This document shows, one piece after another, positions 16,863 through 60,104 of a stretch of DNA of 64,000 bases. The notes under the pieces were generated by a model. It was given only the letters and a program-made list of their open reading frames with translations. It did no database searches and was not told the origin of the DNA. The position numbers and the translations under genes were made by a program. The DNA is from Candidatus Omnitrophota bacterium. GTDB lineage: Bacteria; Omnitrophota; Gorgyraeia; Gygaellales; Profunditerraquicolaceae. The DNA is taken from the NCBI GenBank assembly GCA_041651035.1, contig JBAZKC010000001.1, positions 62,871-126,870 on the forward strand. Direction: 5' to 3'. The number at the start of each line of letters is the position of its first letter. Position 1 is the stretch's first letter.

Positions 16863-17082
16863 CTGCCTCTAAGCAAACTGTTGGTAAAACTCATCCATGA
16901 CCTTCGACTCATCATTGATAATGGTCTTGATATAACCCGATATCTTCCTTATGAAATTTTTCATAATCTTGTACATAGTTTTTTTCTTCATTTTACTTAC
17001 ATTAGAAGTTTACAAAATTAATGTTACAAGATCATTAAGGTAAGGTGAACTTTCCGTGAACTTTTTATTATTGATTAAAAAC

Positions 17083-41366: not shown

Positions 41367-41377
41367 TTCTCTCCTCC

Positions 41378-43814: not shown

Positions 43815-43838
43815 TTTATAACCAGCTTCTGATCTTAT

Positions 43839-44090: not shown

Positions 44091-44139
44091 ATTACCTCCC
44101 GATGCCCCGCGCTAATAAGCACCTTGCCTAAATACGTAC

Positions 44140-44190
44140 ACAAAAAATTCCAACCCGCTGTTGAATAAATCCTAGAGAAAGGTTGGAATT
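44140..44190 (-). terminator. Terminator downstream of hydA (10-bp perfect stem AATTCCAACC/GGTTGGAATT, 25-nt loop, then T6)
   Basis: Hairpin followed by TTTTTTG on the minus strand. Separates hydCBA from the maturase genes. Confidence 0.5.
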
Positions 44191-44306
44191 CATTTCTTAC
44201 CTCCCTTAGGCTTAGATCTTTTAATCCTTACCGCAGGATGCTAAATTATATTACCCACCACTAAAGTATCGACAGTCCGCTAAAGTCCAGCGGCGAGCAT
44301 TTGCAA

Positions 44307-46058
44307 TTATTTGGCGTAAATCGGCCTGGCCTTATAATGCGCATGCAGAAGTTTTTCCGACTTCTCACCCAAAGGCTTGCCTAAAAATTCCTTATACAAT
44401 CTTTTTACATACGGATTCTGATGGCTGCAGCGAATCTGTTTCTGGTCATCATCCTGATACAGTGCCTGCGCCCTTTTAATTCTCAACTCATCTGTAACCA
44501 TATAAGGCTGGCCGCCGCCTCCAACGCAGCCGCCGGGGCAAGCCATAACTTCAATAAAATGATACGGCATCTCCTTACCGCTGCTTTTGGCTTCTCTAAC
44601 CTTATTTAAAATATACTCCACATTGCCTAATCCATGGGCAATGGCAATCTTGAGTTTTTTCCCTTTAATTCCAATCTCAGTCTCTTTAACCCCTTTTAAG
44701 CCGCGCACATTCTCAAATTCTACGTTCTTTAATTCTTCCCCGGTAACAAAATAATGCGCCGTCCTTAATGCCGCCTCCATTACGCCTCCGGTAGAACCAA
44801 AAATTACTCCTGCTCCGGCATATTCTCCTAAGATACTATCGCATTCCTCATCGGGAAGACTATTAAAATCTATACCCGCCTGTTTAATCATACGCACCAA
44901 CTCCCTGGTACAAAGAACGGTATCAATGTCCTGATAACCGGAAGCAAACATTTCGTCATTGCGGGTAATCTCATACTTCTTAGCGGTGCAGGGCATGATT
45001 GAAACCATAAAAATCTTAGCAGGGTCAATCTTATTCTTCTGGGCATAGTAAGTCTTAGACAAAACTCCCAATATTTCATGCGGAGATTTACAGGAAGAAA
45101 AATGTTCAATCATATCCGGATAGAATTTTTCCATAAAATCCACCCAGGAAGGACAACACGTAGTAATTAAGGGAAGCGGCCTGTTTCCATGTAAGAGCCT
45201 TTCTTCAAATTCACTGGCCTCTTCCATAATCGTAACATCCGCAGCAAATGAAGTATCAAAAACCGCGTGGAACCCTAAACGCCTTAATAAGGCATAAAGT
45301 TTTTTAGTAAAATTTTTGCCCACATAACCAAAGGCTTCGCCTATTGAAACCCTGACCGCCGGGGCAATCTGCACCACGCAATATTTATCCGGGTCCTGCA
45401 ATGCCTTCCAGGCCTGGGCAGTATGATCATGCTCGACAAAAGCCCCGGTAGGACAATGCGCTGAACACTGGCCGCAACGCACGCAGGGAGAATCCGCCAG
45501 CTGTATATCCCCGGCAGGAGAAATGCGGGTTTTCATCCCTCTTTCCAGAAATGACAACGCCCATACATCCTGCGCCTCCTGGCAAACATGCACGCACCGT
45601 CCGCAGAGAATACATTTTTTCGGGTCCAAATCAACAGCCTTTGTAGACCTATCTATCGGCAGATCCCTTAAAAACTGCGGAAATGATTCTTCTTTAATTC
45701 CGAAATCTGCGGTTAACTTCTGCAGTTCGCATTCGTTATTTCTGGCGCATTTAAGGCAATCATTAGGATGATTTGACAGGATTAGTTCAATCACCGTCCT
45801 TCTGATCTCGACAATCTCCGGGTCATGCGTTGTAATATCCATACCTTCTTCAAGCGGAGTACAACAGGAACGCAACATCTTATGCGAACCCTTATTTTTA
45901 ACAATGCAAATTCCGCAGGCTGCCGAAGCAGGCAAATCAGGATGCTTACAAAGAGTAGGGATTTTTATCTGCACTCTTTTAGCTGCTTCTAAAATGGTAG
46001 TTCCGGCTTCTACCCTTAATAAAATACCATTGATTTTTGCTTTCACTATTTTTGTCAT
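44307..46058 (-). CDS. hydA: [FeFe] hydrogenase catalytic subunit HydA (bifurcating-type, with N-terminal 2Fe-2S and 4Fe-4S domains)
   Basis: 583 aa. H-cluster motifs L1 TTCCPSW (DNA checked), L2 MPCTAKK, L3 EVMACPGGCVGG. N-terminal ferredoxin-like Cys clusters. Confidence 0.9.
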   Translation of the reverse strand: MTKIVKAKINGILLRVEAGTTILEAAKRVQIKIPTLCKHPDLPASAACGICIVKNKGSHKMLRSCCTPLEEGMDITTHDPEIVEIRRTVIELILSNHPNDCLKCARNNECELQKLTADFGIKEESFPQFLRDLPIDRSTKAVDLDPKKCILCGRCVHVCQEAQDVWALSFLERGMKTRISPAGDIQLADSPCVRCGQCSAHCPTGAFVEHDHTAQAWKALQDPDKYCVVQIAPAVRVSIGEAFGYVGKNFTKKLYALLRRLGFHAVFDTSFAADVTIMEEASEFEERLLHGNRPLPLITTCCPSWVDFMEKFYPDMIEHFSSCKSPHEILGVLSKTYYAQKNKIDPAKIFMVSIMPCTAKKYEITRNDEMFASGYQDIDTVLCTRELVRMIKQAGIDFNSLPDEECDSILGEYAGAGVIFGSTGGVMEAALRTAHYFVTGEELKNVEFENVRGLKGVKETEIGIKGKKLKIAIAHGLGNVEYILNKVREAKSSGKEMPYHFIEVMACPGGCVGGGGQPYMVTDELRIKRAQALYQDDDQKQIRCSHQNPYVKRLYKEFLGKPLGEKSEKLLHAHYKARPIYAK

Positions 46059-46060
46059 AT

Positions 46061-47803
46061 TTATTTTTTAAGAATTGCTTTAAATTTACAGACATCAAAA
46101 CAACGTCCGCACTTTATACATTTCTCCGAAACAATACTATAACCTGATTCCTTGTCCCCGCTTATCGCCTGGACCGGGCAGTTAATCATACACAATCCGC
46201 AGCGCTTACATTTATCTGCCATTATATTATAAGTCACTAGACTGCTGCATTTGCCCGCCGGGCATCTCTTATTTAAAATATGCTCATTATACTCAGGTTC
46301 AAAGTATTTTAAAGTAGAAAGTACCGGATTTGAAGCAGTCTGGCCCAACCCGCACAAAGATGCTTTCTGCATAGCCTGGGATATTCTCCTTAATTGCCCC
46401 AAATCCTCAGGCCCACCTCTTCCTTCAGAAATCTTTGTTAGATAATTAAGCATCTGAAAACCGCCGATACGGCAAGGCGCGCATTTCCCGCAGGATTCTT
46501 CCACGCAAAAGCCCAGATAAAATTTAGGGATATCCACCATACAATCATCGTCATCCATAACAATCATCCCGCCTGAGCCCATGATCGAACCTAACTTTTG
46601 CAGATTTTCATAATCAACCGGGGTGTCTAAAAGCGATTCGGGGATTACTCCTCCGCTTGGACCCCCAGTCTGTACTGCCTTTATCGGCTTGCCGGATAAT
46701 GTCCCGCCGCAGATATCCATTACAATTTCTCTCAAAGTCGCGCCCATGGCGATCTCAACTAATCCTGAATTTTTAACTTTTCCGGTTACCGCAAAAACCT
46801 TTGTTCCCTTTGAAGTTTGCGTGCCAATCTGGGCAAACCACTTGCCACCTTTTGAAACAATCACCGGTATATTGGCTAAGGTCTCAACATTATTAATGAC
46901 CGTGGGTTTTCCCCATAATCCTTTTACCGAAGGATACGGCGGACGCGGGTGGGGGGTTCCTCTCCTACCCTCAATAGAAGAGATTAACGCGGTTTCTTCT
47001 CCGCAAACAAAAGCCCCGGCACCTAACCTTATATCTAAATCTAAATTAAAAGAACTACCTAAAATATTCTTTCCCAATAATCCATAATCATAGGCCTGCT
47101 TGATTGCTTTATTAATCCTTTCAACTGCCAGAGGGTATTCCGCGCGGATATAGAAATATCCCTTGGAAGCCCCGATAGCAAAAGCAGCGATGATTAAACC
47201 TTCAATAACAGAATGCGGGTCACCCTCTAAAACGCTTCTGTCCATATAAGCGCCGGGGTCGCCTTCATCGGCGTTACAGATGACAAATTTATCGGTAGAG
47301 GCGACCTCGCGGGCAAAATTCCATTTCATCCAGGTTGGATATCCCGCGCCTCCTCTTCCCCGGATACCGCTAACCTTTATTTCTTCAATTAATTTTTGCT
47401 GGCCCAAATCACCAAGGACTTTCTTTAAAGCCAAATATCCGCCGCAGGCAATATATTCTTCAATACTCTCCGGGTCAATATTACCGCAATTACGCAAAAC
47501 AATCCTGAGCTGCTTGGCCTTGGACCTAAAAACCAGATCCTCAATAACTTTACCCTGGCCTAAAGTAGTATCAATTATTCTTTTAATATCCGCGTCCTGG
47601 ACATTAACATAGGTGATCTTATCCGGCAGGATCTTAATCACTAATCCCTTGTCATATACGCCGATATCAGCTACCCTGACTACTTGAATCTGCGAATGCA
47701 GATTGCCTTCCCGAAGATAATCCAATAGGCGGGTGTAAAACTCGCGCGTCTTATCCTGCCTCTTTAAATCCGTATCTTTTACTAAAATAACCTTAGTATA
47801 CAT
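46061..47803 (-). CDS. hydB: NuoF-like flavoprotein subunit HydB (NADH/FMN binding, C-terminal 2x[4Fe-4S])
   Basis: 580 aa. GRGGAGYPT, a 4Fe-4S CxxCxxC...C, and a C-terminal ferredoxin domain. Confidence 0.85.
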   Translation of the reverse strand: MYTKVILVKDTDLKRQDKTREFYTRLLDYLREGNLHSQIQVVRVADIGVYDKGLVIKILPDKITYVNVQDADIKRIIDTTLGQGKVIEDLVFRSKAKQLRIVLRNCGNIDPESIEEYIACGGYLALKKVLGDLGQQKLIEEIKVSGIRGRGGAGYPTWMKWNFAREVASTDKFVICNADEGDPGAYMDRSVLEGDPHSVIEGLIIAAFAIGASKGYFYIRAEYPLAVERINKAIKQAYDYGLLGKNILGSSFNLDLDIRLGAGAFVCGEETALISSIEGRRGTPHPRPPYPSVKGLWGKPTVINNVETLANIPVIVSKGGKWFAQIGTQTSKGTKVFAVTGKVKNSGLVEIAMGATLREIVMDICGGTLSGKPIKAVQTGGPSGGVIPESLLDTPVDYENLQKLGSIMGSGGMIVMDDDDCMVDIPKFYLGFCVEESCGKCAPCRIGGFQMLNYLTKISEGRGGPEDLGQLRRISQAMQKASLCGLGQTASNPVLSTLKYFEPEYNEHILNKRCPAGKCSSLVTYNIMADKCKRCGLCMINCPVQAISGDKESGYSIVSEKCIKCGRCFDVCKFKAILKK

Positions 47804-47824
47804 AAATTAGTTTTTTCCTCTTCT

Positions 47825-48172
47825 TTAAACTAATACCTCAAAAATACAATCATTGACCAGCATCTTGGAGATAACATGCTTTTCCAGTATCTTTATGGCT
47901 ACCTCTTTATTCACTGTGCCATAGACTACTGAAGGCAGGCCTACAACACTTACCTCCACCAGCGGCTCGGCATAACAGGAGCCTGCGCAGCCGCATTTCT
48001 TGATCTGGATCTGCAGGTTCCTCTTTTTTACTTCCTCAACAAAAAAATTGAAAACATCTTCGGCTCCGGCGGCAATCCCGCAACTACCCATGCCCACCTT
48101 AATCCAATCTTTGGGCTTATCAGTTGAGGCCTTATTCATCTTTTCTAAATCGCCCGGGGTTAACTTATTCAT
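47825..48172 (-). CDS. Thioredoxin-like [2Fe-2S] ferredoxin domain protein
   Basis: 115 aa with four Cys (GSCGI...KCGCAGSC). The same domain is fused to the N-terminus of the 1048-aa NuoF-like protein in the neighbouring operon. Confidence 0.6.
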   Translation of the reverse strand: MNKLTPGDLEKMNKASTDKPKDWIKVGMGSCGIAAGAEDVFNFFVEEVKKRNLQIQIKKCGCAGSCYAEPLVEVSVVGLPSVVYGTVNKEVAIKILEKHVISKMLVNDCIFEVLV

Positions 48173-48178
48173 AATCAG

Positions 48179-48652
48179 TTATTCCTCTTTAATATATTTG
48201 GATAAGATATCGGCAATCTCATCCTTTTTTACCTTACCGTATACTTTATTATCAATCATCACGACAGGGGCTAAACCGCAACAACCCAGGCACCTGACCA
48301 CATCCAGATGAAAAAGACCGTCCTTGGTAGTCCGGCCTTCTTTGACGCCTAAAATATTTTTTATTTCATCCAGGATTGCCGCCGCCCCCCGTAAATAACA
48401 GGCTGTCCCCATGCACAAGGCAATGCGATGCTTACCAGGAGGAACCAACTTAAAGAAATTATAAAAAGTAATTACCTCATAGATCCTGGCCAGCGGGACA
48501 TCTAACATCTTGGATAATTCCAATGACAACTCCCGCGGCACATAACCATGATGATTCTGGATCTCATGCAGGATCATGATTAAATTGCCTTCTTTGCCTT
48601 TCCATTGTTCTACAAGGCTGATCAATTCCGGATTAAGTTTCTTATGTTCCAT
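48179..48652 (-). CDS. hydC: NuoE-like [2Fe-2S] subunit HydC
   Basis: 157 aa. CMGTACYLRG...CLGCCGLAPV Cys pattern of the 24-kDa subunit family. Confidence 0.8.
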   Translation of the reverse strand: MEHKKLNPELISLVEQWKGKEGNLIMILHEIQNHHGYVPRELSLELSKMLDVPLARIYEVITFYNFFKLVPPGKHRIALCMGTACYLRGAAAILDEIKNILGVKEGRTTKDGLFHLDVVRCLGCCGLAPVVMIDNKVYGKVKKDEIADILSKYIKEE

Positions 48653-48789
48653 GGCTTAAGATTATTTTATTTCTATATATGATCTTTAAGTTCTTACTTT
48701 GTCTTTCTTAGAAGGGACTAAAGGCAAGAAACTCCAAAATCAGCGTAGAAATTTTACCATATCTCATCTAAAAAACAAGAGAAATCTTA

Positions 48790-50568
48790 TTAACGGGCTT
48801 CTTCTCTTTGAGTATATTGCGTATGCAATAAATGATGAGATTTCTCACCTAAGGGCCGGTCTAAAAACTCTTTGTATAAAGCCTGCACTGCCGGATTTTC
48901 ATGCGACTTTCTAAGAGGTTTATTTTTATCCTCCCGGTAAATTGCTTCCATCCTCTTTAACCTGATTTGGTTATCCGTAGGAATCGGCTGGCCTGCGCCT
49001 CCCAGGCATCCTCCGGGACAAGTCATAATCTCAATGAAGGCGTAAGGTGAATGGCCTGCTTTAACCTCCTCTAATAACGTACGCGCATTGCTTAAACTAT
49101 TAGCTACAGCCACCTTAAGTTTTAATCCGTCAATATCTACCTCGGCAACCTTAATGCCGTTTAGCCCCCTTAATTCCATAAAATCCAGCTTCTGGAGCTT
49201 TTTGCCTGTAAGCACTTCATAAGCTGTCCTTAATGCCGCCTCCATTACCCCTCCGCTTGCTCCGAAGATTACCGCAGCTCCTGTAGAGATGCCTAAAGGC
49301 TCATCAAAATCTTCACCTGCTAAGTTTACAAAATCAATCCCCGCCTCTTTAATCATAGAACTTGCTTCCCGGGTAGTCAAAACATAATCCACGTCGTAAA
49401 ATATTTCATCATCTTTAAGCTTCAATTTGTCTTTCCAATAACCAAATGCGCTTTTCATCTCAGGGCGCCTTGCCTCAAACTTCTTAGCGGTGCAGGGCAT
49501 GATCGAAACAACAACTATATTCCTGGGGTCAAGATGGCACTTCTCGGCATAATAAGTCTTGGCAATTGCCCCGAACATCTGCTGAGGGGATTTGCAGCTG
49601 GAGACGTGGCCCAATGCCTCCGGAAAAAAATGCTCGGCAAATTTTATCCATCCCGGAGAACAGGAAGTTATCATAGGAAGCAGCCCTTTATTTTTTATCC
49701 TGTCAATCAGTTCATAACCTTCTTCCATAATCGTCAGGTCAGCGGAAAATTGCGTATCAAAAACTTTTGTAAAACCTAATTTGCGTAAACTTTGGGCTAA
49801 TTTAGCCGTAACCAGGCTGCCTGCCGGCATGCCGAATTCTTCGCCGATTGCCGCCCTTACCGCAGGGGCAACCTGGACAACTACAAATTTCTTCGGGTCA
49901 GATAACGCCTGCCATACATCTTCTGTAGAATTTTTTTCAGTGATCGCGCCCGTAGGGCAAACTAAAAGGCATTGGCCGCAGTTAACGCATACGCTATTTG
50001 CCAGGCCAGAATCAAAAAATGTGGTTACCTTACTGGCCTTTCCGCGTCCGGAGAAATCAATCGCCTTAACAGTCTGGATAGCAGAACAAACAGCAACACA
50101 ACGGCCGCATAAAATACATTTATTAGGATCTCGAATAAGTGAGACGGAGGTAGTATCCAGGGGCAGCTCTATTTTTGTTGCCTTGGGAAAGCGCACTTCC
50201 TTTATTCCCATATCAGAAGCCAGTTTTCTTAATTCGCAGGTCTGGCTCCTGTCACAACAAAGGCAATCCTTAGGATGCCCGGCTAAAAGTAATTCTAAAT
50301 TTAATCTTCTGGCATTCCTTACGCGGGGGGTATTGGTAAAAATCTCCATCCCCTGGCTTACAGAAGTAACGCATGAACGCAATAAGGTCTTGGCTTTTTT
50401 TACCTCCACTAAGCAAATTGAACAGGCAGCCTCCTGGTTAATATCTTTTAAATAACACAGCGTGGGGATATTAATTCCGGCTTTTACGCAAGCTTCCAAA
50501 ATGGTCAAAGAAGCTTCGCATTCATAAGCCTTGCCGTCAATTTTTAAAGATATTTTTCTTTCTTCCAT
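48790..50568 (-). CDS. Second [FeFe]-hydrogenase-like catalytic subunit (HydA2) with L1 variant TSCSPGW
   Basis: 592 aa with the same domain layout as HydA. L2 MPCTAKK and L3 EIMTCPGGCLGG are intact. L1 reads TSCSPGW, with Ser (TCT) at the position aligned to the cubane-ligating Cys of CpI. The codon was verified on the DNA at 49657-49659. Confidence 0.8.
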   Translation of the reverse strand: MEERKISLKIDGKAYECEASLTILEACVKAGINIPTLCYLKDINQEAACSICLVEVKKAKTLLRSCVTSVSQGMEIFTNTPRVRNARRLNLELLLAGHPKDCLCCDRSQTCELRKLASDMGIKEVRFPKATKIELPLDTTSVSLIRDPNKCILCGRCVAVCSAIQTVKAIDFSGRGKASKVTTFFDSGLANSVCVNCGQCLLVCPTGAITEKNSTEDVWQALSDPKKFVVVQVAPAVRAAIGEEFGMPAGSLVTAKLAQSLRKLGFTKVFDTQFSADLTIMEEGYELIDRIKNKGLLPMITSCSPGWIKFAEHFFPEALGHVSSCKSPQQMFGAIAKTYYAEKCHLDPRNIVVVSIMPCTAKKFEARRPEMKSAFGYWKDKLKLKDDEIFYDVDYVLTTREASSMIKEAGIDFVNLAGEDFDEPLGISTGAAVIFGASGGVMEAALRTAYEVLTGKKLQKLDFMELRGLNGIKVAEVDIDGLKLKVAVANSLSNARTLLEEVKAGHSPYAFIEIMTCPGGCLGGAGQPIPTDNQIRLKRMEAIYREDKNKPLRKSHENPAVQALYKEFLDRPLGEKSHHLLHTQYTQREEAR

Positions 50569-53500
50569 CTAATTACCTTCTTTGATATCGCACCTCAAAC
50601 ATCTATTTGCTTCAGCGCAGGCCTGCTTTAAAGATAACCCCAAAGAAACCTCTCTAAAATTATTCTGCCTCTTTTTTATTTCCAGTTTCCCGCTCTCCTC
50701 TTTTTTAGATGCCTTTACCCCTAAGGGAACCTGGGATTTATATGAAAATTTACGTAAGAGCCTCGGGAACCTGTCTTCTTTACTTAAGGCCAGGTCAATT
50801 GCCCTGGCAGCTTTTTTACCATCAGACATTGCCTCAACCGCAGTCCCCGGCCCCATAACTAAATCCCCTCCGGCATAAACTTTATCCAAACTGGTCTTTA
50901 AATTAAACCTCCCTGCTTTAACTGTCCCATCCTGATTAATTAGAATGCCGCACTCCTTAATAAACTCCGCATCTACTCTTTCTCCGATTGCCAGAATTAC
51001 AGTATCACAGGGGATCTGAAAGACTTCATCAGTGGCAACCGGCTTTCTTCTTCCGGAGAGATCATAATCCCCTAAAGCCATTATCGTCGCGCTTATTCCA
51101 TTGACCTTGCCGCGGGCATCTGCCTTTATGGCTTTGGGGCCGGCTAAAAATATAAATTTAACACCCTCTAATTCCGCCCCCTTGATCTCATCTTTATTTG
51201 CCGGCATATCTTCTTTCTCTCTGCGATAAACAATAGTTACGTCACTACCTAACCTTAAAGCTGTACGCGCGGCATCAACCGCGACATTACCCGCGCCGAT
51301 TATTACCACCTTTTTCCCAATAGGCGGCTTTTTACCAACTGCTACATCTTCCAGGAATAAAATGCCTGATAATACCCCTTTAAGATTTTCTCCCGGAATG
51401 CCTAAACCCATACTCTTATAAGCCCCGGTTGCCAGAAATACGGCATCCGACTCTTTGATCTTGCTTTGTAAATTGCGCGCGCTGATTCTTTTGTTACATA
51501 AAATCTTCGCCCCCATCTTCTGCACAAAAGAAATTTCTTTCTTTAATACTGACTTTGGCAGCCGGTATTCCGGGATACCATAGCGTAAAACTCCCCCCGG
51601 CTCGGGATTAGCTTCATATATGACAACATCGTGGCCGAGACGGCTAAGATAAAAACCCGCAGTTAATCCGCTGGGCCCCGCGCCGATTATAGAAATCTTC
51701 TTGCCGGTTTTTGGTAATCTTTCCTTAAACAGGCCCTGGATAATTTTTGCTTCCTGCTTACCTTTATATATACTATCGGCAATATACCTGTGGATTTCTC
51801 CCTGCGAAACCGGATAATCAATATCCTCCCTGCGGCAGCGCATTTTACAATGAAAATGACAGATCCTGCCAGTGGAAGATGGAAAAGGGTTATCCCGGAT
51901 AATACACTCAAACGCCTCGGTTAATCTGTCTTCTTTAAATAATTCCAGAAAACCGGGGATATTCATATGCAATGGGCAGCTATTCTCACAAGGGGAGATA
52001 AAAAGTTCTGAACATATCCCGCCGTCACAACGCTGCTGTTGGATATGCTCCTCATATTCAGGCTTAAAATATCTAAGCGTAGTAAGCACAGGATTTGGCC
52101 CGGTTTGACCTAATCCGCAAAGGGCGGTATCTTTAATTGTAGCCCCTAAATCCTCTAAATCCTCTAAATCTTTCTGAGTAGCCTTACCTTTTGTGATATT
52201 AGTCAGGATGTTTAAGCTTTGGTTTAACCCTTCCCGGCAAGGAGTACATTTACCGCAGGATTCGCTGGTTGTAAATTCAGTAAAATAACGCGCCACATCA
52301 ACCATGCAATTATCATCATCCATTACTACCATGCCGCCGGATCCCATGATCGCGCCCAAAGAAGCCAGATTTTCATAATCAATCGGGGTATTAAATAATG
52401 ACGGGGGGATGCATCCTCCGGAAGGCCCGCCGCTCTGTAAGGCCTTAATCTTTTTATTTGTGCCGGTTCCTGCGCCGATATTATAAATAAGTGTCTGTAA
52501 AGTTGCTCCCAGGGGCAATTCCACCAATCCGGTATTTTTTATCTTGCCCACGAGAGAGAAAACTTTAGTTCCGGAACTATTCTGGGTTCCTGTCTGCGTA
52601 AACCAATCCGCCCCCTTGGCAATAACAACCGGGATATTGCTCCAGGTTTCGACATTATTAATATTAGTGGGCTTATCCAGATACCCTTTTTGCGCGGGAA
52701 ATGGCGGACGGGGAGTAGGCCTCCCCGAACGGCCAGCAAGAGAAGAAATTAAAGCCGTTTCTTCTCCGCAAACAAATGCGCCGGCACCTTCTACTAACTG
52801 CAGGTTAAAAGAAAACCCGCTATCAAATATATTCTCGCCCAAAAGCCCGTAATCCCGGGCATCAACAATTGCTTTTTTTATCCGCTCGACTGCCAAAGGG
52901 TATTCTGCGCGCACATAAATGATCCCGGAAGAAGCTCCCATCGCATATGCGCCGATAATCATTCCTTCTAAAAGCATGTGCGGGTCGCTTTCGCCTTCAT
53001 TACGGTTCATATACGCGCCAGGGTCTCCTTCATCAGCATTACAAATAATGTATTTTTCGCTTGAATTTTCCTTACGCATCAATTCCCATTTTATCCCGGT
53101 GGGAAAACCTGCCCCTCCCCTGCCCCTTAACTTTGATTTTTTTACTTCCGCGATCACAGCTTCCGGTTTAAGATCTCTTAGAACACTTAACAAGGACTGG
53201 TATCCACCTACGGCAATATATTCCTCTATATCTTCAGGGTTAATCAAACCGCAGTCCCTTAAAACAATTTTTTTCTGCCACTTAAAGAATGGGATCTTGT
53301 CCCAATCGGATATCTGCTTGAATCCTTTACCGTAAGAAACCTGTCCGGTAATATGATCCCAGGACTCAATTTTGCATAACGCTCTCCTGGGATTAATATT
53401 ATTACTACTCAACTCTTTAACTATAGATTCTACGTCTTTAGGTAAAACCGAGTTTAAAATAACCAGGGGTTTGCCGGGTAAGGAAATGTTAACTAACGGC

Positions 53501-53715
53501 TCTTGGGCGCAAAAACCAAAACAGCCTACTTTAGTAAGTAAGGCCGGAACTTTTCTTTTATCCAGAGCGGCGCGAAATGCCTGAAATACCTCCTCTGCGC
53601 CATTACCAATACCGCAGGTCCCCATCCCTACTGCGATACGTGGCTTATTCGGCAATATTTTCGCCAGGCCTTTTTCTCTGATTATCCTTAAATCTTCGGC
53701 GTTTTTGATTTTCAT
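50569..53715 (-). CDS. Fusion protein: thioredoxin-like [2Fe-2S] + NuoF-like (FMN/NADH, 4Fe-4S) + GltD/NfnB-like FAD/NAD(P)H oxidoreductase
   Basis: 1048 aa. N-terminal GMGTCGIG...KVGCFGFC, then GRGGAGFPT and CGKCTPCREG, then a GltD N-terminal Fe-S region (CxxxxC...C...CHFHCKMRC) and two dinucleotide folds (IIGAGPSGLTAG, VIIGAGNVAVDAART). Confidence 0.8.
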   Translation of the reverse strand: MKIKNAEDLRIIREKGLAKILPNKPRIAVGMGTCGIGNGAEEVFQAFRAALDKRKVPALLTKVGCFGFCAQEPLVNISLPGKPLVILNSVLPKDVESIVKELSSNNINPRRALCKIESWDHITGQVSYGKGFKQISDWDKIPFFKWQKKIVLRDCGLINPEDIEEYIAVGGYQSLLSVLRDLKPEAVIAEVKKSKLRGRGGAGFPTGIKWELMRKENSSEKYIICNADEGDPGAYMNRNEGESDPHMLLEGMIIGAYAMGASSGIIYVRAEYPLAVERIKKAIVDARDYGLLGENIFDSGFSFNLQLVEGAGAFVCGEETALISSLAGRSGRPTPRPPFPAQKGYLDKPTNINNVETWSNIPVVIAKGADWFTQTGTQNSSGTKVFSLVGKIKNTGLVELPLGATLQTLIYNIGAGTGTNKKIKALQSGGPSGGCIPPSLFNTPIDYENLASLGAIMGSGGMVVMDDDNCMVDVARYFTEFTTSESCGKCTPCREGLNQSLNILTNITKGKATQKDLEDLEDLGATIKDTALCGLGQTGPNPVLTTLRYFKPEYEEHIQQQRCDGGICSELFISPCENSCPLHMNIPGFLELFKEDRLTEAFECIIRDNPFPSSTGRICHFHCKMRCRREDIDYPVSQGEIHRYIADSIYKGKQEAKIIQGLFKERLPKTGKKISIIGAGPSGLTAGFYLSRLGHDVVIYEANPEPGGVLRYGIPEYRLPKSVLKKEISFVQKMGAKILCNKRISARNLQSKIKESDAVFLATGAYKSMGLGIPGENLKGVLSGILFLEDVAVGKKPPIGKKVVIIGAGNVAVDAARTALRLGSDVTIVYRREKEDMPANKDEIKGAELEGVKFIFLAGPKAIKADARGKVNGISATIMALGDYDLSGRRKPVATDEVFQIPCDTVILAIGERVDAEFIKECGILINQDGTVKAGRFNLKTSLDKVYAGGDLVMGPGTAVEAMSDGKKAARAIDLALSKEDRFPRLLRKFSYKSQVPLGVKASKKEESGKLEIKKRQNNFREVSLGLSLKQACAEANRCLRCDIKEGN

Positions 53716-54275
53716 TTCCTGCTCCTGCGCGGAGAAATACCTTTAACAATCTTACGCATTTTCTCCTTAGTCATGTGGCTATAAATATTCCCATCCACCT
53801 CAACTACCGGGGCCAGCGCGCACTGGCCAAAACAGGCAACGGTTTTAATCGTGAATTTATTATCCTTTGTTGTCAGAGATGGTTTGCCGTCTTGGCTGAA
53901 ATCATCTTCCTTAAAGCCAAATAAATTAATCAAAAAATCCAGCAGGTTTTTTGAACCGCGCGTATGGCAGGCTGTCCCGCGGCAGACAATAATCGAATGC
54001 TCTCCTTGCGGCTTAAGGTTAAAGAAGGCATAAAAAGTAATAATATTATAAATCCTGGATAAAGCTATGTTGGTTTCTTGGGCAATATACTCTAAGGTGC
54101 TTTGAGTAAGATATTTATGCTGATTTAATTTCTGGGCTTCTTCTAATATCCCCAAGATGCTTCCCGGCTTGCCTTGATACCTGGAAATAATTATATCTAA
54201 CTTTGTTTTGTCCTGTCCTAACCCTAAAAATTCTTCTTTTTTATCTTCAACCTTAATCATTTTATTTAGCTTCAA
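53712..54275 (-). CDS. NuoE-like [2Fe-2S] subunit
   Basis: 187 aa. CRGTACHTRG...CFGQCALAPV. Confidence 0.8.
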   Translation of the reverse strand: MKLNKMIKVEDKKEEFLGLGQDKTKLDIIISRYQGKPGSILGILEEAQKLNQHKYLTQSTLEYIAQETNIALSRIYNIITFYAFFNLKPQGEHSIIVCRGTACHTRGSKNLLDFLINLFGFKEDDFSQDGKPSLTTKDNKFTIKTVACFGQCALAPVVEVDGNIYSHMTKEKMRKIVKGISPRRSRK

Positions 54276-54910
54276 TTTTTTGTTACTTTAGTCTTTTCGA
54301 TGATATTAACGAAATAAATAAGATTCTCCAGCTCTATCTCAAGATTTACATTATTTATAACGCAGCCTTCTTTCTCTTTTAACTTTATAGGGGCAAAATT
54401 CAATATACCCTTTATGCCTCCGGAGATCATTTCATCCGCTACCGACTGAGCTCCTGCTTCCGGCACAGCGATAATACCAACCTTAATGTTCTGCTTTTTA
54501 ATAAACTCCTTAATGTCCTCCAGTGCCAAAACAGGGATATCCGCCTCAGGATTCAATTTAGCCGGATCATTATCAAAACAAGCGACGATCCTAATGCCTT
54601 CTTTTTCAAAACCTTTGTATTTTATTAAAGCGGTACCCAGTTTTCCTTTGCCAGCCAGAATAACCTTTTGCACCTCGTTCTTGCCGAGGATGTTATTCAT
54701 CTTGTCCAGTAATTCTTCTATTTTATAACCGCCTCTCTTATTGCCGGAAAGGCCGAAAATAGAAAAATCTTTCCTGACCTGGGAAGATGTTACATCAATG
54801 GCATCGGCGAGATTATCCGAGAAAACTTTTACAAATCCTAAGTCTTTCAAGCGATAAAGCGCGTTTTTATACCGGGATAGCCTTATAATGCAGTTTTTGT
54901 TTGTGATCAT
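54272..54910 (-). CDS. rex: Redox-sensing transcriptional repressor Rex
   Basis: 212 aa. N-terminal wHTH (RLSRYKNALYRL) and a Rossmann GKGKLG NADH-binding domain. Confidence 0.85.
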   Translation of the reverse strand: MITNKNCIIRLSRYKNALYRLKDLGFVKVFSDNLADAIDVTSSQVRKDFSIFGLSGNKRGGYKIEELLDKMNNILGKNEVQKVILAGKGKLGTALIKYKGFEKEGIRIVACFDNDPAKLNPEADIPVLALEDIKEFIKKQNIKVGIIAVPEAGAQSVADEMISGGIKGILNFAPIKLKEKEGCVINNVNLEIELENLIYFVNIIEKTKVTKN

Positions 54911-54911
54911 A

Positions 54912-54929
54912 TTGTTATTTTTTTCACAA
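54912..54929. promoter_or_regulatory. Rex-box-like palindrome TTGTTAT-TTTT-TTCACAA immediately upstream of the rex ATG
   Basis: Matches the 18-bp TTGTGAA-N4-TTCACAA Rex consensus at 16 of 18 positions. Confidence 0.5.
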
Positions 54930-54973
54930 TATATTTTAATTATAACGTCAGCTATATTTTTGTCAAGGATTTT

Positions 54974-54991
54974 TTGTGATTTATTTCACAA
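54974..54991. promoter_or_regulatory. Rex-box palindrome TTGTGAT-TTAT-TTCACAA
   Basis: Matches the Rex consensus at 17 of 18 positions. Lies 64-81 bp upstream of the rex start. Confidence 0.6.
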
Positions 54992-55017
54992 TAAGTAAAA
55001 ATGAACTTATTCATTTA

Positions 55018-55533
55018 TTACGCTCCTTTTTGTAGAAATGATAGCAATGATTGTATGATTACCAGCGGGCTTGGCGGGCACCCCGGAATATGTAATACCA
55101 CCGGTAATATATTTCCTACCGCGCCTTCGACATAATAAGAATCTTTAAAAATCCCGCCATTTAACGCACAGTCTCCGGCGGTAATAACAAATTTGGGCTC
55201 AGGCATGGATTCGTAAGTCTTTTTTAACGCCAGGCACATATTCTTAGATACGGGGCCGGTAACCAAAAGCGCGTCTGCGTGGCGCGGAGAAGCAACGAAA
55301 TTTATCCCGAACCGCCCTAGATCGTAAATAGGGTTATTCGCCGCGGCGATCTCCGATTCACAGGCTCCGCAAGAACCGGAATCTAGCTGGCGTATATGCA
55401 AAGACCTGCCGAATCTTTTCCGGATCAAAAGCTTCAATTCCGGTCCGGCTGATTCTATCTGGCGGGATAATCCCGGCTCAATATGCCTGGTTACAACGCC
55501 TTTTAATATCCTATTCCTTAATATATGTATCAT
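55018..55533 (-). CDS. NuoB / group-4 hydrogenase small-subunit-like protein (proximal 4Fe-4S Cys retained)
   Basis: 171 aa. SCGAC...GDCALNGG...IPGCPP. Confidence 0.75.
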   Translation of the reverse strand: MIHILRNRILKGVVTRHIEPGLSRQIESAGPELKLLIRKRFGRSLHIRQLDSGSCGACESEIAAANNPIYDLGRFGINFVASPRHADALLVTGPVSKNMCLALKKTYESMPEPKFVITAGDCALNGGIFKDSYYVEGAVGNILPVVLHIPGCPPSPLVIIQSLLSFLQKGA

Positions 55534-55536
55534 ATT

Positions 55537-57114
55537 TTATAGGTCATTGCCTGAATACGACAGATCAAAACTCTTATTGCAAAGCGGAAAATCCGGGATT
55601 ATGTTTCCTAATACAGCGTAAGATAACCCCTGCCAATTAAAAAAAGAAGGGTCTACAACTTTACACCGCCTGATCTGCCCCGTGGGATCTGTCTTAAGCC
55701 AATATAAAACAGGACCCCTCCATCCTTCCGAGTAACCCAGAGCACTTCCTCCTCTTGGCTTTAATTCAGAAGTAATTTCTCCGTCCTTATTAAGCTTGCG
55801 CGCGAACTCTTCAATTAAACGGCAGGATTCTTCAAATTCCAGGACCCTGATCCGCAGCCTCGCTAAAACATCTCCTGATTCTTGTAAGGCCATTTTGAAT
55901 CCAGCTTCCTTGTACACCCCGGAAAAATATTTTCTTAAGTCCATAGGAATGCCGCAGGCACGGGCGGAAAGTCCGACTGCTCCCAGGTCTTCAGCTGTTT
56001 TCCTACGCAACAGGCCTGTAGTATCTACCCTATCCATAAAAGAAACACTGGAATAGAGTATCTTGGTTAATTCGCTAAAGTCCTTCTTTAGGCTCTTAAG
56101 AGACCTCAAAAGCATTTGTTTCTTAGTTTCATCTATGCCTGTTAAAACTCCTCCTACTGTATTAACATTTTTAAGGTACCTGCTCCCGGTAAGCTTATCG
56201 TTTAACTGGAGCATACTTTCCTTAATAATAGAGGCGTAGGCGGCCGGAAAACTAAACCCTACGTCAAGGGCGATGCCGCCGATATCGTTTACATGATTAT
56301 ACATGCGTTCCAGCTCAAGAAAGATAGCTCTTAAATAAGCGGCTTGCGCGGGAACCGATACTCCGAAGATCTTCTCTGCTGCCTGAGTAAACGCCAGGCT
56401 GTGCGCGAAACTTGAATCTCCTGACACGCATTCTGATAGCCTTACCGCGTTACGGCAAGGCTTGCCTTCAAATATCTTTTCTACCCCTCTATGGGTAAAA
56501 CCTAAGCGGATCTCTAAATTTATTATCGGCTCTCCGGCGACGCTAAAGCGGAAATGCCCGGGCCCGATAATACCGGCATGCACCGGGCCAACAGGGACTT
56601 CAAATACTCCCACTCCTTCAACCCTATCAAACTTATATTCGCTTAACTGCCCGGGATCCATTTTCTGAAAATCCTTGCGCAAAGGAAAATTATCCGGCGG
56701 GCAAACTTCATCATGCAGGCGCAGCCGCCTTAGATCGGGATTACCTTTAGGCTCAATACCGAACATCTCCCGTATCTCTCGCTCGAAAAGGCTGGCTGAA
56801 TATACGCTTTTAGCCAGCGAATCAAAACAAGGATCATCCTGCGGAATATCCATACTGACAATGATCCACTGGCTTTTTTTCAAATTCAAGAATACGGAAT
56901 TGATTACGAACTTAGCCGAATCCCCGCGTTCATCACAGGCAAACAGCATCATTACCGAAGAAGGAAGTATTTTATGCAGTAAAAGACAGGTGTCTTTGAA
57001 ATCCTGCGCCCTTACCTTAATGGTTATTTCATCAGGGTAATCCCGCGAAACCGAAAGCGCGTTAAAACCGGGAATTTTATTTTTTATACCGGCAATAACT
57101 TCTGAGCTATCCAT
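55537..57114 (-). CDS. NuoC-NuoD fusion / HycE-HyfG-like large subunit lacking the C-terminal [NiFe] CxxC (Ehr-like)
   Basis: 525 aa. N-terminal NuoC-like (~150 aa) plus a NuoD/[NiFe]-large-subunit fold. N-motif region RLSECVSGDSSFAHS has a single Cys. The C-terminus reads VVDPSFFNW where hydrogenases have DPCxxC. Confidence 0.7.
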   Translation of the reverse strand: MDSSEVIAGIKNKIPGFNALSVSRDYPDEITIKVRAQDFKDTCLLLHKILPSSVMMLFACDERGDSAKFVINSVFLNLKKSQWIIVSMDIPQDDPCFDSLAKSVYSASLFEREIREMFGIEPKGNPDLRRLRLHDEVCPPDNFPLRKDFQKMDPGQLSEYKFDRVEGVGVFEVPVGPVHAGIIGPGHFRFSVAGEPIINLEIRLGFTHRGVEKIFEGKPCRNAVRLSECVSGDSSFAHSLAFTQAAEKIFGVSVPAQAAYLRAIFLELERMYNHVNDIGGIALDVGFSFPAAYASIIKESMLQLNDKLTGSRYLKNVNTVGGVLTGIDETKKQMLLRSLKSLKKDFSELTKILYSSVSFMDRVDTTGLLRRKTAEDLGAVGLSARACGIPMDLRKYFSGVYKEAGFKMALQESGDVLARLRIRVLEFEESCRLIEEFARKLNKDGEITSELKPRGGSALGYSEGWRGPVLYWLKTDPTGQIRRCKVVDPSFFNWQGLSYAVLGNIIPDFPLCNKSFDLSYSGNDL

Positions 57115-58541
57115 AATATATCCTTTTTTATAAACGGAAATACGATCCCTAAAGCCAAGGTGAGAGAAAACAAGAATAAAAATGCCAGTTTCCCGCTTAA
57201 CGGCTCCCCTGTTATAGCCATAGCCTTGGGAAGGTTACCAAAAAGCATCTTTCCGAAATGATAAATGAATGCCCCGAAAATAACCGACAGAAATAATAAT
57301 AACAGGGCGGCTGTTAAGTATGAACCGTTAGTGAACGCGGAAATAACGATCAATATCTCGCTTACGAATATGGCAAACGGCACAAACCCTGTAAGCGCAA
57401 ATACCCCCATCAATACCATAACGCCCGTAAACGGCATTGCCTCAATTACTCCCCTGATAGCGTTCATATTATGTTTCTTATATGCGCTGACAATATTACC
57501 CGCCCCGAAGAACATAATCGACTTAGCCACAGCGTGATTAAGGACATGCATGGCCGCCCCGGCAATGGCCAAAGGCGAACCCAGGCCAAAACCGATGACA
57601 ATTATTCCGACGTGTTCAATGCTGCTGTAGGCAAGAAGGCGTTTTAAATCTTTTTGGACCAGGATAAATCCGCAGGATATAACCAAAGAAACTAAACCCA
57701 GCAAGGTCATCAAATGCGCAAAATACGCGAAACCCACGCCCTTGATTACGATAATGCCAAACCTTAAAATGGCGTAGATAGCCGTCTTTAACAAGACGCC
57801 GGAAAGCAACGCACTTATCGGAGCGACTGCCTGACTGTGGGCATCGGGTAACCAGGTGTGCATCGGCGCAAGGCCTGCCTTTGTCCCGTATCCGACAAGG
57901 ACAAAGATAAAGGCGATTTTCAGGATATTTTTATCCAATATGTGCGCGACAGGAACCATATCTGACCAATTCAAACTCTTAGACAAGCCGGAAATTGAAA
58001 AAGCGTAGGAAAAAAGGATCGTCCCTAAAAGTGCCAGGATTATACCCGCTGAGCAAATAATAATATATTTCCAGGCGGCCTCGACTGATTCCTTGGAATT
58101 ATAAAACCCTACCAGGAATGCAGAAATAAGCGTAGTCATTTCAATAGCCGCCCAAAGCATGCCTAAATTATTAAGCGCGGGGACAAATAGCATAGAAAAA
58201 CAGAATAGATTAAAAAGAACATAATAAACTTTCGCCTTCTTTTCGGATACCATTCCTTTATGGATATCCTTATTGATGTAGCCGATAGAATAAAGCGCGG
58301 CGGCAAAGGCTACTACGGAAATAACAAAAATAAAAAAAACGCTTAAGACATCCAGATATATAAAATTACCGCATAGTTTAAGGCTTCCTGATAATACTAT
58401 ATTCCTAAAAAGCAGAATAGCCTCGGACAGCACAACCAGGTACCCCAGACTATTGGCTACCCCATAAACCTTCTGTTTCTTAATAAACAGCGCGGCTAAT
58501 GCGAGTAAAACAGGGATACTCAAGATAACGAATATCTGCAT
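57084..58541 (-). CDS. NuoM/N-MrpD-like antiporter-type membrane subunit (HyfF-like)
   Basis: 485 aa. GTKAGLAPMHTWLPDAHSQA motif. Confidence 0.8.
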   Translation of the reverse strand: MQIFVILSIPVLLALAALFIKKQKVYGVANSLGYLVVLSEAILLFRNIVLSGSLKLCGNFIYLDVLSVFFIFVISVVAFAAALYSIGYINKDIHKGMVSEKKAKVYYVLFNLFCFSMLFVPALNNLGMLWAAIEMTTLISAFLVGFYNSKESVEAAWKYIIICSAGIILALLGTILFSYAFSISGLSKSLNWSDMVPVAHILDKNILKIAFIFVLVGYGTKAGLAPMHTWLPDAHSQAVAPISALLSGVLLKTAIYAILRFGIIVIKGVGFAYFAHLMTLLGLVSLVISCGFILVQKDLKRLLAYSSIEHVGIIVIGFGLGSPLAIAGAAMHVLNHAVAKSIMFFGAGNIVSAYKKHNMNAIRGVIEAMPFTGVMVLMGVFALTGFVPFAIFVSEILIVISAFTNGSYLTAALLLLFLSVIFGAFIYHFGKMLFGNLPKAMAITGEPLSGKLAFLFLFSLTLALGIVFPFIKKDILWIAQKLLPV

Positions 58542-58545
58542 AAAA

Positions 58546-59178
58546 TTATCCTTTCAAACGCGAAAGCTTATTTACGTCAATATGCGTAAAGAGCTTGTTA
58601 ATCCTGTAGACAAACAAACCCATAATGATTACACTGACGAATACATCCAGAAATATGGCGATCTCTACAAAAAACGGCATGCCTCCTGAAACAAACGAAG
58701 CAAACAAAAATACCCCGTTTTCCATTACCAAAAGCCCGGTTACCTGGGTAAAAGCCTTCATACGCGATACCATGAGAAAGGCTCCGATAAGAATCACGGA
58801 AAAAGCTACTGTAATGGCGGCCAATCTGTAATCACGGCTAAAACCTAAAGCCCCGGAGAAGATCCATGAGAGATAAGTAAGTATGAATGCTACGAGTAGT
58901 GAAAGCTGCGCGTTGACAAAAAGGCCAAGGCCCTGGTCTACGCTTATCTTTTTGGCTACCTGGCTTAAAACACGGGGTATTATTAAAACTTTTAGAAGCA
59001 AAATGAGCAGGGCGATAAAACATAGATCCACCTGCTTTTCCGCAAATCCGGTAAATAAGGTTGCCAGAAAAATAAAAAACGACTGGTAACGGAAACTGCG
59101 TATCAGCGCCGGCACCCTTTTGGCGATAACCATAAGGTATGTCGTGATTAAAACTCCAAATAGGATCACCTCTCTCAT
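58546..59178 (-). CDS. HyfE-like small membrane subunit
   Basis: 210 aa, ~6 TM. Its position within the Hyf-like gene order supports the call. Confidence 0.5.
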   Translation of the reverse strand: MREVILFGVLITTYLMVIAKRVPALIRSFRYQSFFIFLATLFTGFAEKQVDLCFIALLILLLKVLIIPRVLSQVAKKISVDQGLGLFVNAQLSLLVAFILTYLSWIFSGALGFSRDYRLAAITVAFSVILIGAFLMVSRMKAFTQVTGLLVMENGVFLFASFVSGGMPFFVEIAIFLDVFVSVIIMGLFVYRINKLFTHIDVNKLSRLKG

Positions 59179-59179
59179 A

Positions 59180-60100: not shown

Positions 60101-60104
60101 TTTC

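Follow-up and report, generated by a model that had tools for sequence, protein, structure and literature searches.

The stretch of DNA analysed here, 64,000 nucleotides (nt) of a contig from a Candidatus Omnitrophota bacterium (the window), carries beside a canonical operon for a HydABC-type [FeFe]-hydrogenase a second one, rex-hydC2-hydB2-hydA2, whose diaphorase subunit HydB2 is fused to a GltD-like module. The question raised by this locus is which electron carriers the second enzyme connects. In many fermenters and acetogens the H2 threshold is determined by HydABC-type hydrogenases, the low-potential branch of which works by a mechanism that is debated. An earlier note on this DNA proposed either an NAD(P)H-coupled bifurcating hydrogenase or a module of the Stn transhydrogenase type. 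The reading favoured here, with a probability of roughly 0.55, is that the four genes form one autoregulated operon encoding a HydABC/Bfu-type [FeFe]-hydrogenase with a re-plumbed diaphorase subunit, and that this enzyme would couple H2/H+ to nicotinamide adenine dinucleotide (NAD(H)) at a flavin mononucleotide (FMN) and to its phosphate, NADP(H), at a flavin adenine dinucleotide (FAD), serving as a redox valve at high NADH. The genes of the operon are the following.

54272-54910, minus strand: rex, redox-sensing repressor, 212 amino acids (aa); PF06971 and PF02629, NCBIfam equivalog NF003996 (241 bits, cutoff 138).
53712-54275, minus strand: hydC2, BfuC/NuoE-like subunit (2Fe-2S, thioredoxin-like), 187 aa from a TTG start; PF01257 (4.5e-41).
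50569-53715, minus strand: hydB2, HydB::GltD fusion, 1048 aa; PF01512, PF10589, Fer4_20 and Pyr_redox_2.
48790-50568, minus strand: hydA2, catalytic subunit of an [FeFe]-hydrogenase of the M3 type, 592 aa; Pfam and NF040763 (869 bits, cutoff 765).

The open reading frames (ORFs) were found on the minus strand at the coordinates given in the earlier note, and the separate NuoE-like subunit announced there is hydC2, recognised by its PF01257 domain. According to the ORF list the four genes run head to tail and each is translationally coupled to the next: the rex stop codon overlaps the TTG start of hydC2 (alternatively, it lies 11 nt ahead of an ATG start of hydC2 at 54260), hydC2 and hydB2 overlap in ATGA, while hydB2 and hydA2 abut (TAG, then ATG). 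With its stop codon overlapping the start of hydC2, rex belongs to the operon as its first gene and is more than a neighbour of it. The operon had been described as lying directly behind rex; the linkage stands, and rex itself has to be counted in.

HydB2 is the subunit in which the operon departs from the canonical one. A Pfam search found, after a thioredoxin-like N-terminus, PF01512 (aa 191-362), an SLBB domain, PF10589 (aa 473-557), Fer4_20 (aa 561-651), and Pyr_redox_2 (aa 673-966), i.e., the three-part architecture and the whole domain set that had been predicted for the 1048-aa protein, with a C-terminal half that is indeed GltD/NfnB-like. The parts of the protein are encoded as follows (pLDDT, predicted local distance difference test).

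53296-53715, minus strand: hydB2 aa 1-140, the thioredoxin-like part, which holds the B5 [2Fe-2S] site and corresponds to the N-terminal domain in solved BfuB chains; pLDDT 84-97.
52003-53277, minus strand: hydB2 aa 147-571, NuoF-like core with FMN/NAD(H) site, B1 [4Fe-4S] cluster and B2 Zn hinge; PF01512 and PF10589.
50572-51996, minus strand: hydB2 aa 574-1048, GltD/NfnL-like module with two [4Fe-4S] clusters, FAD and an NADP(H) site; Fer4_20 and Pyr_redox_2.
50581-50685, minus strand: hydB2 aa 1011-1045, tail (...NFREVSLGLSLKQACAEANRCLRC) supplying the first two cysteines of the Fer4_20 clusters; pLDDT 81-91.

Residue conservation was counted over 118 family members. At the B5 site three cysteines, C34, C65, and C69, never vary, and the fourth, C114, occurs in 111 of 118 (94%). 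The FMN and NADH loops of the NuoF-like core, GRGGAGFPTG and GAGAFVCGEET, are invariant, as are the B1 ligands C487, C490, C493, and C533 and the B2 hinge residues C470, C563, C568, and H557 (118/118). The same holds for all the cluster cysteines of the GltD/NfnL-like module (C576, C580, C619, C623, C627, C1039, and C1042), for its FAD loop (G678, G680, P681, and G683, a GxGxxG motif at 678-683; reference motif IIGAGPSG), and for a second Rossmann loop (G807, G809, and N810), which is followed after its second strand by Y830-R831-R832, again in 118/118. Both glycine loops and the YRR triplet align with GGGNTAMD...ILYRR of Pyrococcus furiosus (Pfu) NfnL, and the Y830-R831-R832 region corresponds to the signature for the 2'-phosphate of NADPH established for GltD and NfnL. 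The idea of a HydABC-type complex with NADP(H) drawn into it is supported.

The junction between the two halves is sharp. Over aa 147-571 HydB2 is 60% identical to HydB1 of the neighbouring canonical operon, and the alignment stops at RCDGGIC/RCPAGKC (RCxxGxC). Past this point HydB1 continues with two CX2CX2CX3CP motifs (C532-C542 and C562-C572), which bind clusters B3 and B4, while HydB2 continues with SPCENSCP, the start of Fer4_20. The B3/B4 domain is therefore absent from HydB2, being replaced from aa 574 onwards, and the GltD/NfnL-like module begins exactly where the ferredoxin-type domain of a canonical HydB begins. Among solved proteins the closest relatives of the module are the NfnL-like inserts of Caldicellulosiruptor saccharolyticus (Csac) NfnA (6e-112), Thermococcus sibiricus (Tsi) NfnA, and Sporomusa ovata (Sov) StnC, followed by Pfu NfnL. 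The last 35 residues of HydB2 align with residues 16-48 of Pfu NfnL and with the tails that follow the FAD domain in Csac NfnA and Sov StnC; the module is thus a circularly permuted form, of the kind seen in the A subunits of Nfn-Bfu and Stn complexes.

One further residue of the module, H642, is invariant (118/118). The aligned position is occupied by Lys in StnC (K170) and by Glu in NfnL, the equivalence with K170 having been established by residue count on the alignment. K170 of StnC is strictly conserved and serves as the non-Cys ligand of the FAD-proximal [4Fe-4S] cluster (PMC10482914). The fused protein of Acidobacteria has His at this position too, whereas a standalone NfnB encoded in locus L019 of a relative has Glu, and from this comparison the fused family has an invariant ligand type of its own. 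The detail appears to be without an earlier report, as far as the literature search showed.

A structure model agrees with this division. The AlphaFold model of HydB2 has a pLDDT of 86 and a pTM (predicted template modelling score) of 0.79, with the permuted tail well packed. In Foldseek the N-terminal half resembles BfuB chains (template modelling score, TM, 0.82-0.96, target-normalised) and the C-terminal half NfnA, StnC, and NfnL; solved chains each cover half of HydB2 at most (TMq <=0.50).

The unusual length of HydB2 is the only feature, and there is nothing else, that speaks for an artefact of assembly or annotation in which hydB and gltD were joined by a frameshift near 52000, a possibility named in the earlier note and one whose probability is negligible. 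The exact 1048-aa protein is deposited at NCBI from a Candidatus Omnitrophota metagenome-assembled genome (MAG), on a 647-kb contig. A protein search returned 118 homologues of 1000-1100 aa with 60-85% identity, full-length, from many assemblies and with the same junction, and the suspected frameshift site is this very junction (aa 571 corresponds to nt 52003). An artefact is also excluded by the module itself, which lacks an N-terminal Cys pair of its own and is completed by the C-terminal tail, an arrangement sensible only in a single polypeptide. A scan with one genome per species gave 206 relatives, and statements on 80 genomes refer to the best 80 of these 206. All of the 80 are fusions, with most or all of the query covered where the contig permits, so that the artefact is ruled out by at least 80 species-level genomes as well. 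They come from Omnitrophota, Margulisiibacteriota, Bacteroidales (including the complete genome CP006772), Spirochaetia, Lentisphaerae, Akkermansiaceae, FCPU426, Acidobacteria, and one MAG labelled Deltaproteobacteria, about ten phyla. The gene order C2-B2-A2 is kept in essentially every related locus with sufficient flank among the best 80 of 206, and the tandem with the canonical operon together with rex upstream is kept in the close Omnitrophota relatives.

The partner subunits are those of a hydrogenase. HydC2 contains exactly four cysteines (98, 103, 148, and 152), which form the C1 [2Fe-2S] site. HydA2 comprises Fer2_4, NADH-G_4Fe-4S_3, a 2x4Fe-4S domain, Fe_hyd_lg_C (1.2e-94), and Fe_hyd_SSU according to Pfam, and its score lies above the curated cutoff of NF040763, "NADH-dependent [FeFe] hydrogenase". 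The signature of the H-cluster was taken as P1 TSCxPxW, P2 MPCxxKxxE, and P3 ExMxCPGGC together with the FeS domains of the M3 type; HydA2 has P1 TSCSPGW (aa 301-307), P2 MPCTAKKFE, and P3 EIMTCPGGCLGGAGQP. Its best solved relatives are HydA of Acetobacterium woodii (2.5e-189) and of Thermoanaerobacter kivui (4.1e-187). Among the partner HydA proteins of the family, TSCSP is found in all 72 that cover P1 and E.M.CPGGC in all 68 that are full-length. TSCSP in place of TSCCP was considered as a sign of degeneration, and this was rejected: A. woodii HydA has the same Ser instead of the cluster Cys and is active, with Ser301 ligating the [4Fe-4S] part of the H-cluster in an enzyme that is spectroscopically and catalytically normal (PMC10021017). 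The identity to the neighbouring canonical copies is 49% for HydA, 60% for the HydB core, and 38% for HydC, in keeping with the claim that HydA2 is a full-length paralogue distinct from HydABC next door.

The expression of the operon is predicted to be under the control of its own first gene. The 107-nt region upstream of rex contains a promoter flanked by two candidate Rex boxes.

54974-54991, minus-strand reading: distal putative Rex box TTGTGAAATAAATCACAA, one mismatch to TTGTGAAnnnnTTCACAA, immediately 5' of the -35 hexamer.
54939-54966, minus strand: sigma-70-type promoter TTGACA-16 nt-TATAAT, identical to the consensus at 12 of 12 positions and better than any other site within 43800-55600.
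54912-54929: proximal putative Rex box TTGTGAAAAAAATAACAA, two mismatches, between the -10 hexamer and the rex ATG.

A scan of the whole window for Rex boxes gave seven matches at up to three mismatches, against 2.8 expected, and the two boxes of the operon are the best of them except for a tied two-mismatch site at 16949-16966. Two Rex boxes and linkage to rex had been claimed before, and both were found: Rex passes the NF003996 cutoff, and boxes with one and two mismatches flank a perfect promoter. Orthologous Omnitrophota promoters repeat the TTGACA ... TATA(A/T)T arrangement. An equivalent of the distal box 5' of the -35 hexamer occurs in a single relative (L006), and the proximal box, as TTGTGAAAAAnnGAACAA or with TAACAA, immediately precedes the ATG of rex in 12 orthologous loci. 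This conserved box has three mismatches to the Bacillus-type consensus, and so is missed by a scan at two mismatches and seen when the promoters are read. The conserved proximal operator, derived from 54912-54929 of the window and the promoters of loci L001-L016 and L073, is TTGTGAA-N4-(T/G)AACAA, a hybrid of a Bacillus-type (TTCACAA) and a Clostridium-type (TTAACAA) Rex half-site. By its repressor gene and the palindromic operator at the promoter the operon would fit as a member of a Rex regulon. Rex leaves DNA at high NADH/NAD+. Ravcheev and colleagues are said to have described, in J Bacteriol in 2012, Rex-regulated hydrogenase operons of Firmicutes and Thermotogae; there, as here, operators of the TTGTGAAnnnnTTCACAA or TTGTTAAnnnnTTAACAA type overlap the hydrogenase promoter and repression is relieved by NADH, while in the Omnitrophota operon rex is the first, translationally coupled gene and the operators are predicted from sequence. 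The motif TTGTGAAAGTTTTCTCAG recurs 76 nt inside rex in relatives, which is probably mere coding conservation.

How such an enzyme might work can be proposed by comparison with solved complexes. In HydABC and NfnABC the electrons of the mid-potential substrate pass through the A subunit and B1 to FMN, at which NAD(H) binds, and C1, situated on the mobile C-terminal domain (CTD) of HydC, carries low-potential electrons to B3/B4, which reduce ferredoxin (PMC10021017, PMC11829005, PMC12018979). Deletion of the B3/B4 domain in T. kivui HydABC abolished bifurcation (PMC10021017; PMC11829005). In the second complex the mobile C1 would pass electrons to or from the two NfnL-type clusters in place of B3/B4, and NADP(H) would take the place of ferredoxin, with H2/H+ being linked to NAD(H) at FMN and to NADP(H) at FAD. 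In Stn the FAD is a plain converter between electron pairs and single electrons (PMC10482914). The FAD of HydB2 would likewise be a two-electron/one-electron converter, as in Stn and glutamate synthase, rather than a second bifurcating flavin, and the His ligand, as opposed to the Glu of bifurcating NfnL, seems to fit such a non-bifurcating role. Non-bifurcating HydB homologues are devoid of B2, B5, and the conserved hinge His (PMC9304861, PMC12018979), and the invariance of these elements in the fused family suggests that the gating and the energetic coupling of both nucleotide sites are retained.

The regulation would fit one direction of the reaction. Since Rex leaves DNA at high NADH, the enzyme would work in the H2-evolving direction, venting reducing equivalents: the operon would be induced at high NADH/NAD+ and its product would catalyse NADH + NADPH + 2 H+ -> 2 H2 + NAD+ + NADP+, with the oxidation of NADPH (ca. 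-380 mV in vivo) energetically coupled to the less favourable oxidation of NADH (ca. -280 mV). Potentials were calculated with textbook values for the situation in vivo (NAD ca. -280 mV, NADP ca. -380 mV). The calculated potential of H2 is ca. -296 mV at 10 Pa and ca. -325 mV at 100 Pa, and the conversion of NADH + NADPH to 2 H2 comes out as feasible up to ca. 150 Pa H2, while NADH alone stops at ca. 3 Pa. The coupling would permit ferredoxin-free H2 formation up to ca. 100-200 Pa H2. A more far-reaching version of the proposal, less likely than not, is a ferredoxin-independent bifurcating/confurcating hydrogenase catalysing 2 H2 + NAD+ + NADP+ <-> NADH + NADPH + 2 H+; in it the B1-FMN-C1 core would exchange its "low-potential" electrons, via the His-ligated pair of NfnL-type clusters, with FAD and NADP(H).

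Several points weigh against the favoured reading. NAD and NADP do not differ in standard potential, so that any energetic coupling would depend on the ratios in vivo. The specificity for NAD(H) or NADP(H) at either site of HydB2 is putative, being read from motifs; the AlphaFold monomer and Foldseek confirm the two halves of the protein and do not decide between mechanisms; and the linkage to rex is confined to close Omnitrophota relatives and some Margulisiibacteriota, with none in Bacteroidales and others. The literature search, with most subscription journals outside its reach, found no enzymology or structure for any member of the fusion family. The remaining points concern ferredoxin. 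In NfnSL the same two clusters reduce ferredoxin (PMC11829005, PMC12018979), and of the three elements that make up the ferredoxin "tripod" of NfnABC two are retained in HydB2 and HydC2, namely the thioredoxin-like (B5) domain of the B subunit and the CTD of the C subunit, both parts of the transient ferredoxin trap. These two facts, together with nfnAB lying directly upstream in several Omnitrophota relatives and linking the operon to ferredoxin/NADPH metabolism, favour an enzyme with four substrates, in which ferredoxin would dock on the NfnL-type [4Fe-4S] domain so that H2, NAD(H), NADP(H), and ferredoxin would all be connected; in one possible form, H2 would be evolved at the expense of ferredoxin and NADH while NADP(H) equilibrated with the low-potential branch. 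Such an enzyme is rather doubtful. HydB2 has neither the ferredoxin-like CTD nor the Lys-rich docking loop belonging to it, the exchange of Glu for His at the proximal cluster would argue against a very low-potential branch of the NfnL kind, and beside the canonical ferredoxin-dependent HydABC(D) encoded immediately downstream a second such enzyme would be redundant. An exchange of electrons among H2/ferredoxin, NADH, and NADPH, as suggested in the earlier note, is hypothetical; in solved HydABC enzymes the ferredoxin branch runs through the very domain that HydB2 has lost.

It is also conceivable, if unlikely, that the two nucleotides are not coupled at all, NADH at FMN and NADPH at FAD feeding the H-cluster independently in a non-bifurcating NAD(P)H hydrogenase similar to Hyd1ABC of Syntrophomonas wolfei. 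Omnitrophota inhabit low-H2 anoxic habitats, which suits this explanation, as an uncoupled enzyme would be of no use unless the H2 partial pressure were very low; moreover, the HydB homologues in which B3/B4 is missing belong to NADH-dependent hydrogenases that do not bifurcate (PMC11406978, PMC9304861). Those homologues, however, also lack B2, B5, and the hinge His (PMC9304861, PMC12018979), whereas HydB2 has invariant C470, C563, C568, and H557 and invariant C34, C65, and C69 with near-invariant C114, which suggests that conformational gating is under selection. As for a transhydrogenase of the Stn/NfnABC kind without H2 turnover, in which HydA2 would be a degenerate electron-transfer subunit, two features speak for it, the StnC/NfnA-type permutation of the NfnL-like module and the homology of the BC core. 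Nevertheless, this is highly improbable, given that P1, P2, and P3 are present in HydA2 and in all the full-length partner HydA proteins, that HydA2 passes the NF040763 cutoff, and that hydG, hydE, and hydF lie in the same gene cluster, while StnC has no H-domain (PMC10482914). The Stn reading is contradicted by the H-cluster motifs of HydA2, by His642, and by the placement of the module.

Set beside the known systems, the coupled NAD(H)/NADP(H) hydrogenase favoured here is closest to a group recognised in genomes. Zheng and Huang 2024 (mSystems, PMC11406978) defined "sub-type I BfuABC" within group A3, in which the B3/B4 domain is swapped for DPD_II (Fer4_20) and an FAD/NAD(P) domain; it was found in Hydrogenedentota and in reference genomes of Spirochaetota, Pseudomonadota, Planctomycetota, Verrucomicrobiota, Kiritimatiellota, and Thermodesulfobacteriota. 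Their description is in silico, notes the Ser in P1, and states that biochemical validation is lacking (PMC11406978). The fusion, for which the earlier note could not name a precedent, is thus already described, and the Omnitrophota operon is a further member of an architecture known from genomes only. The match rests on the domain definition and on the P1 Ser: the two share the replacement of B3/B4, an M3a HydA whose P1 has Ser as its fifth residue, and transfer over many phyla, with overlap in Spirochaetota, Verrucomicrobiota, and MAGs labelled Planctomycetota. Absent from the sub-type I paper are Omnitrophota members, the Rex linkage, the circular permutation, the invariant His ligand, and the [NiFe]-partnered version. 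What is added here is the exact junction, the permutation of the StnC/NfnA type, the invariant His642, the retention of B2 and B5, the predicted and conserved Rex autoregulation, and the [NiFe]-linked variant. The two accounts differ in the role of FAD, for which PMC11406978 raises the possibility of a second bifurcation centre; set against K170 of StnC and Glu of NfnL, His642 would rather favour a non-bifurcating FAD. Omnitrophota papers mention only "group A3", and Schut et al. 2022 does not include a fused B subunit. A glutamate-synthase-type domain on the HydB of an archaeal hybrid hydrogenase was reported by Greening and co-workers (PMC11216029).

With HydABC of Thermotoga maritima, A. 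woodii, and T. kivui (PDB 7P5H, 7Q4V, and 8A6T) the second complex shares the three subunits, the gene order, the B1, B2, B5, FMN, and C1 sites, and, with A. woodii, the Ser ligand in HydA, but HydB2 has no ferredoxin-like CTD with B3/B4 and carries instead an NfnL-like FAD/NADP(H) module of ca. 475 aa. The Stn/NfnABC complexes (S. ovata 8OH5, C. saccharolyticus 9BOV, T. sibiricus 9N5U) are similar in their BC-type core, in the permuted NfnL-like module with its RCLxC tail, and in having NADP(H) wired into a Bfu complex. There the module forms an insert of the A subunit, on the mid-potential input path; this subunit is devoid of an H-cluster, and ferredoxin is reduced by the B subunit, where B3/B4 are retained (PMC10482914, PMC11829005). 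In the second complex, by contrast, the module sits on B, replacing B3/B4, and A is a true hydrogenase. The proximal-cluster ligand differs as well, being Lys (K170) in Stn and His642 in HydB2, so the proposed membership in an Stn-like module does not hold. To NfnSL and GltD the C-terminal half of HydB2 is related in fold (rmsd, root-mean-square deviation, 1.8 A to Pfu NfnL over 425 columns), in the seven cluster cysteines, in the FAD/NADPH motifs, and in the conserved Arg of GIPEYRLP. The differences from NfnSL are that there is no NfnS/PyrK-like partner here, that NfnL has Glu at the His642 position and a bifurcating FAD, and that the first Cys pair is permuted in order in HydB2. Finally, in the group A2 (GltD-linked) [FeFe]-hydrogenases of HydDB, HydA occurs beside a separate GltD-like subunit without NuoE/NuoF partners, while here the GltD-like part is fused to the NuoF-like HydB and a NuoE-like gene is present.

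The family amounts to a natural experiment in which the ferredoxin outlet was exchanged for an NADP(H) module and the whole gating core was kept, and it is spread over at least 80 species-level genomes (Omnitrophota, Bacteroidales, Spirochaetia, Verrucomicrobia-related groups, Margulisiibacteriota, and Acidobacteria). If the two pools are coupled as proposed, this would be the first Bfu enzyme with a pyridine nucleotide as the low-potential outlet, a direct link of the NADH and NADPH pools to H2, and the same fused diaphorase would serve [NiFe] hydrogenases in Acidobacteria. Models of redox balance in mostly uncultured anaerobes, the set of known bifurcation partners, and the options for H2-driven NADPH regeneration would change, and one may speculate that together with Nfn one reduced ferredoxin and three NADH would yield four H2. 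If the operon is a plain member of sub-type I, its value would be that of a well-defined example under predicted Rex control, with H642, Y830-R832, and the tail Cys pair as informative residues.

The operon lies within what may be regarded as a hydrogenase island of ca. 22 kb (40-62 kb of the window) with three hydrogenase systems. Its neighbours are listed below.

44307-48652, minus strand: canonical operon hydC1-hydD-hydB1-hydA1, used as the comparison set; Pfam and NCBIfam.
48179-48652, minus strand: hydC1.
47825-48172, minus strand: hydD, 115 aa, HydD/BfuD-like, the B5 thioredoxin-like [2Fe-2S] domain as a separate gene.
46061-47803, minus strand: hydB1, with CX2CX2CX3CP twice.
44307-46058, minus strand: hydA1.
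40158-43814, minus strand: maturases, HydG-like (457 aa, radical SAM and BATS), HydE-like (361 aa, radical SAM), and HydF (402 aa), after hydA1.
55018-62012, minus strand: gene set similar to a group-4-type membrane-bound [NiFe]-hydrogenase, directly upstream of the Rex promoter.

In the canonical operon the B5 domain is separate from HydB: the Cys motifs of HydD, WIKVGMGSCGIAAGAEDVF...CGCAGSCYAEPLVEV, match those of the HydB2 N-terminus, RIAVGMGTCGIGNGAEEVF...VGCFGFCAQEPLVNI, and residues 1-97 of HydB1 contain no Cys. The 137-nt gap between hydA2 and hydC1 (48653-48789) shows no Rex box, strong minus-strand promoter, or terminator-like hairpin, so that read-through from the Rex-controlled promoter into hydCDBA is possible. 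No PyrK-like gene was found in 44000-55600, either in the ORF list or by Pfam. The [NiFe]-like set comprises a NuoB-like protein of 171 aa, a fused NuoC/NuoD-like protein of 525 aa (with a weak NiFeSe_Hases match), a NuoH-like protein of 306 aa, two antiporter-like proteins of 485 and 635 aa, and a further ORF of 210 aa.

The loci of relatives vary around the conserved core. In six of them, which belong to a second group of Omnitrophota except for one labelled Deltaproteobacteria, a standalone GltD/NfnB-like gene stands upstream of hydC2 in place of rex; in one of the six, L019 (990-4448), the upstream genes are ackA for acetate kinase, a PyrK-like NfnA, and the standalone NfnB with Glu mentioned above. 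In Acidobacteria (L077, 4453-11846, and two further loci) HydC and HydB::GltD are followed by a 236-aa FeS protein similar to HoxU and the HydA N-terminus and by the small and large subunits of an [NiFe] hydrogenase, and from these [NiFe] partners the fused diaphorase is a module used with both classes of hydrogenase. The L077 cluster also contains an inserted ORF for a 23S rRNA intervening-sequence protein and, upstream, a second [NiFe] set with a canonical HydB-like gene. In 12 loci of Bacteroidales and relatives a second [FeFe] operon adjoins the fused one; its HydB-like gene matches the NuoF core only (HydB1 residues ca. 126-504), without the N-terminal and B3/B4 regions, and its product looks non-bifurcating.

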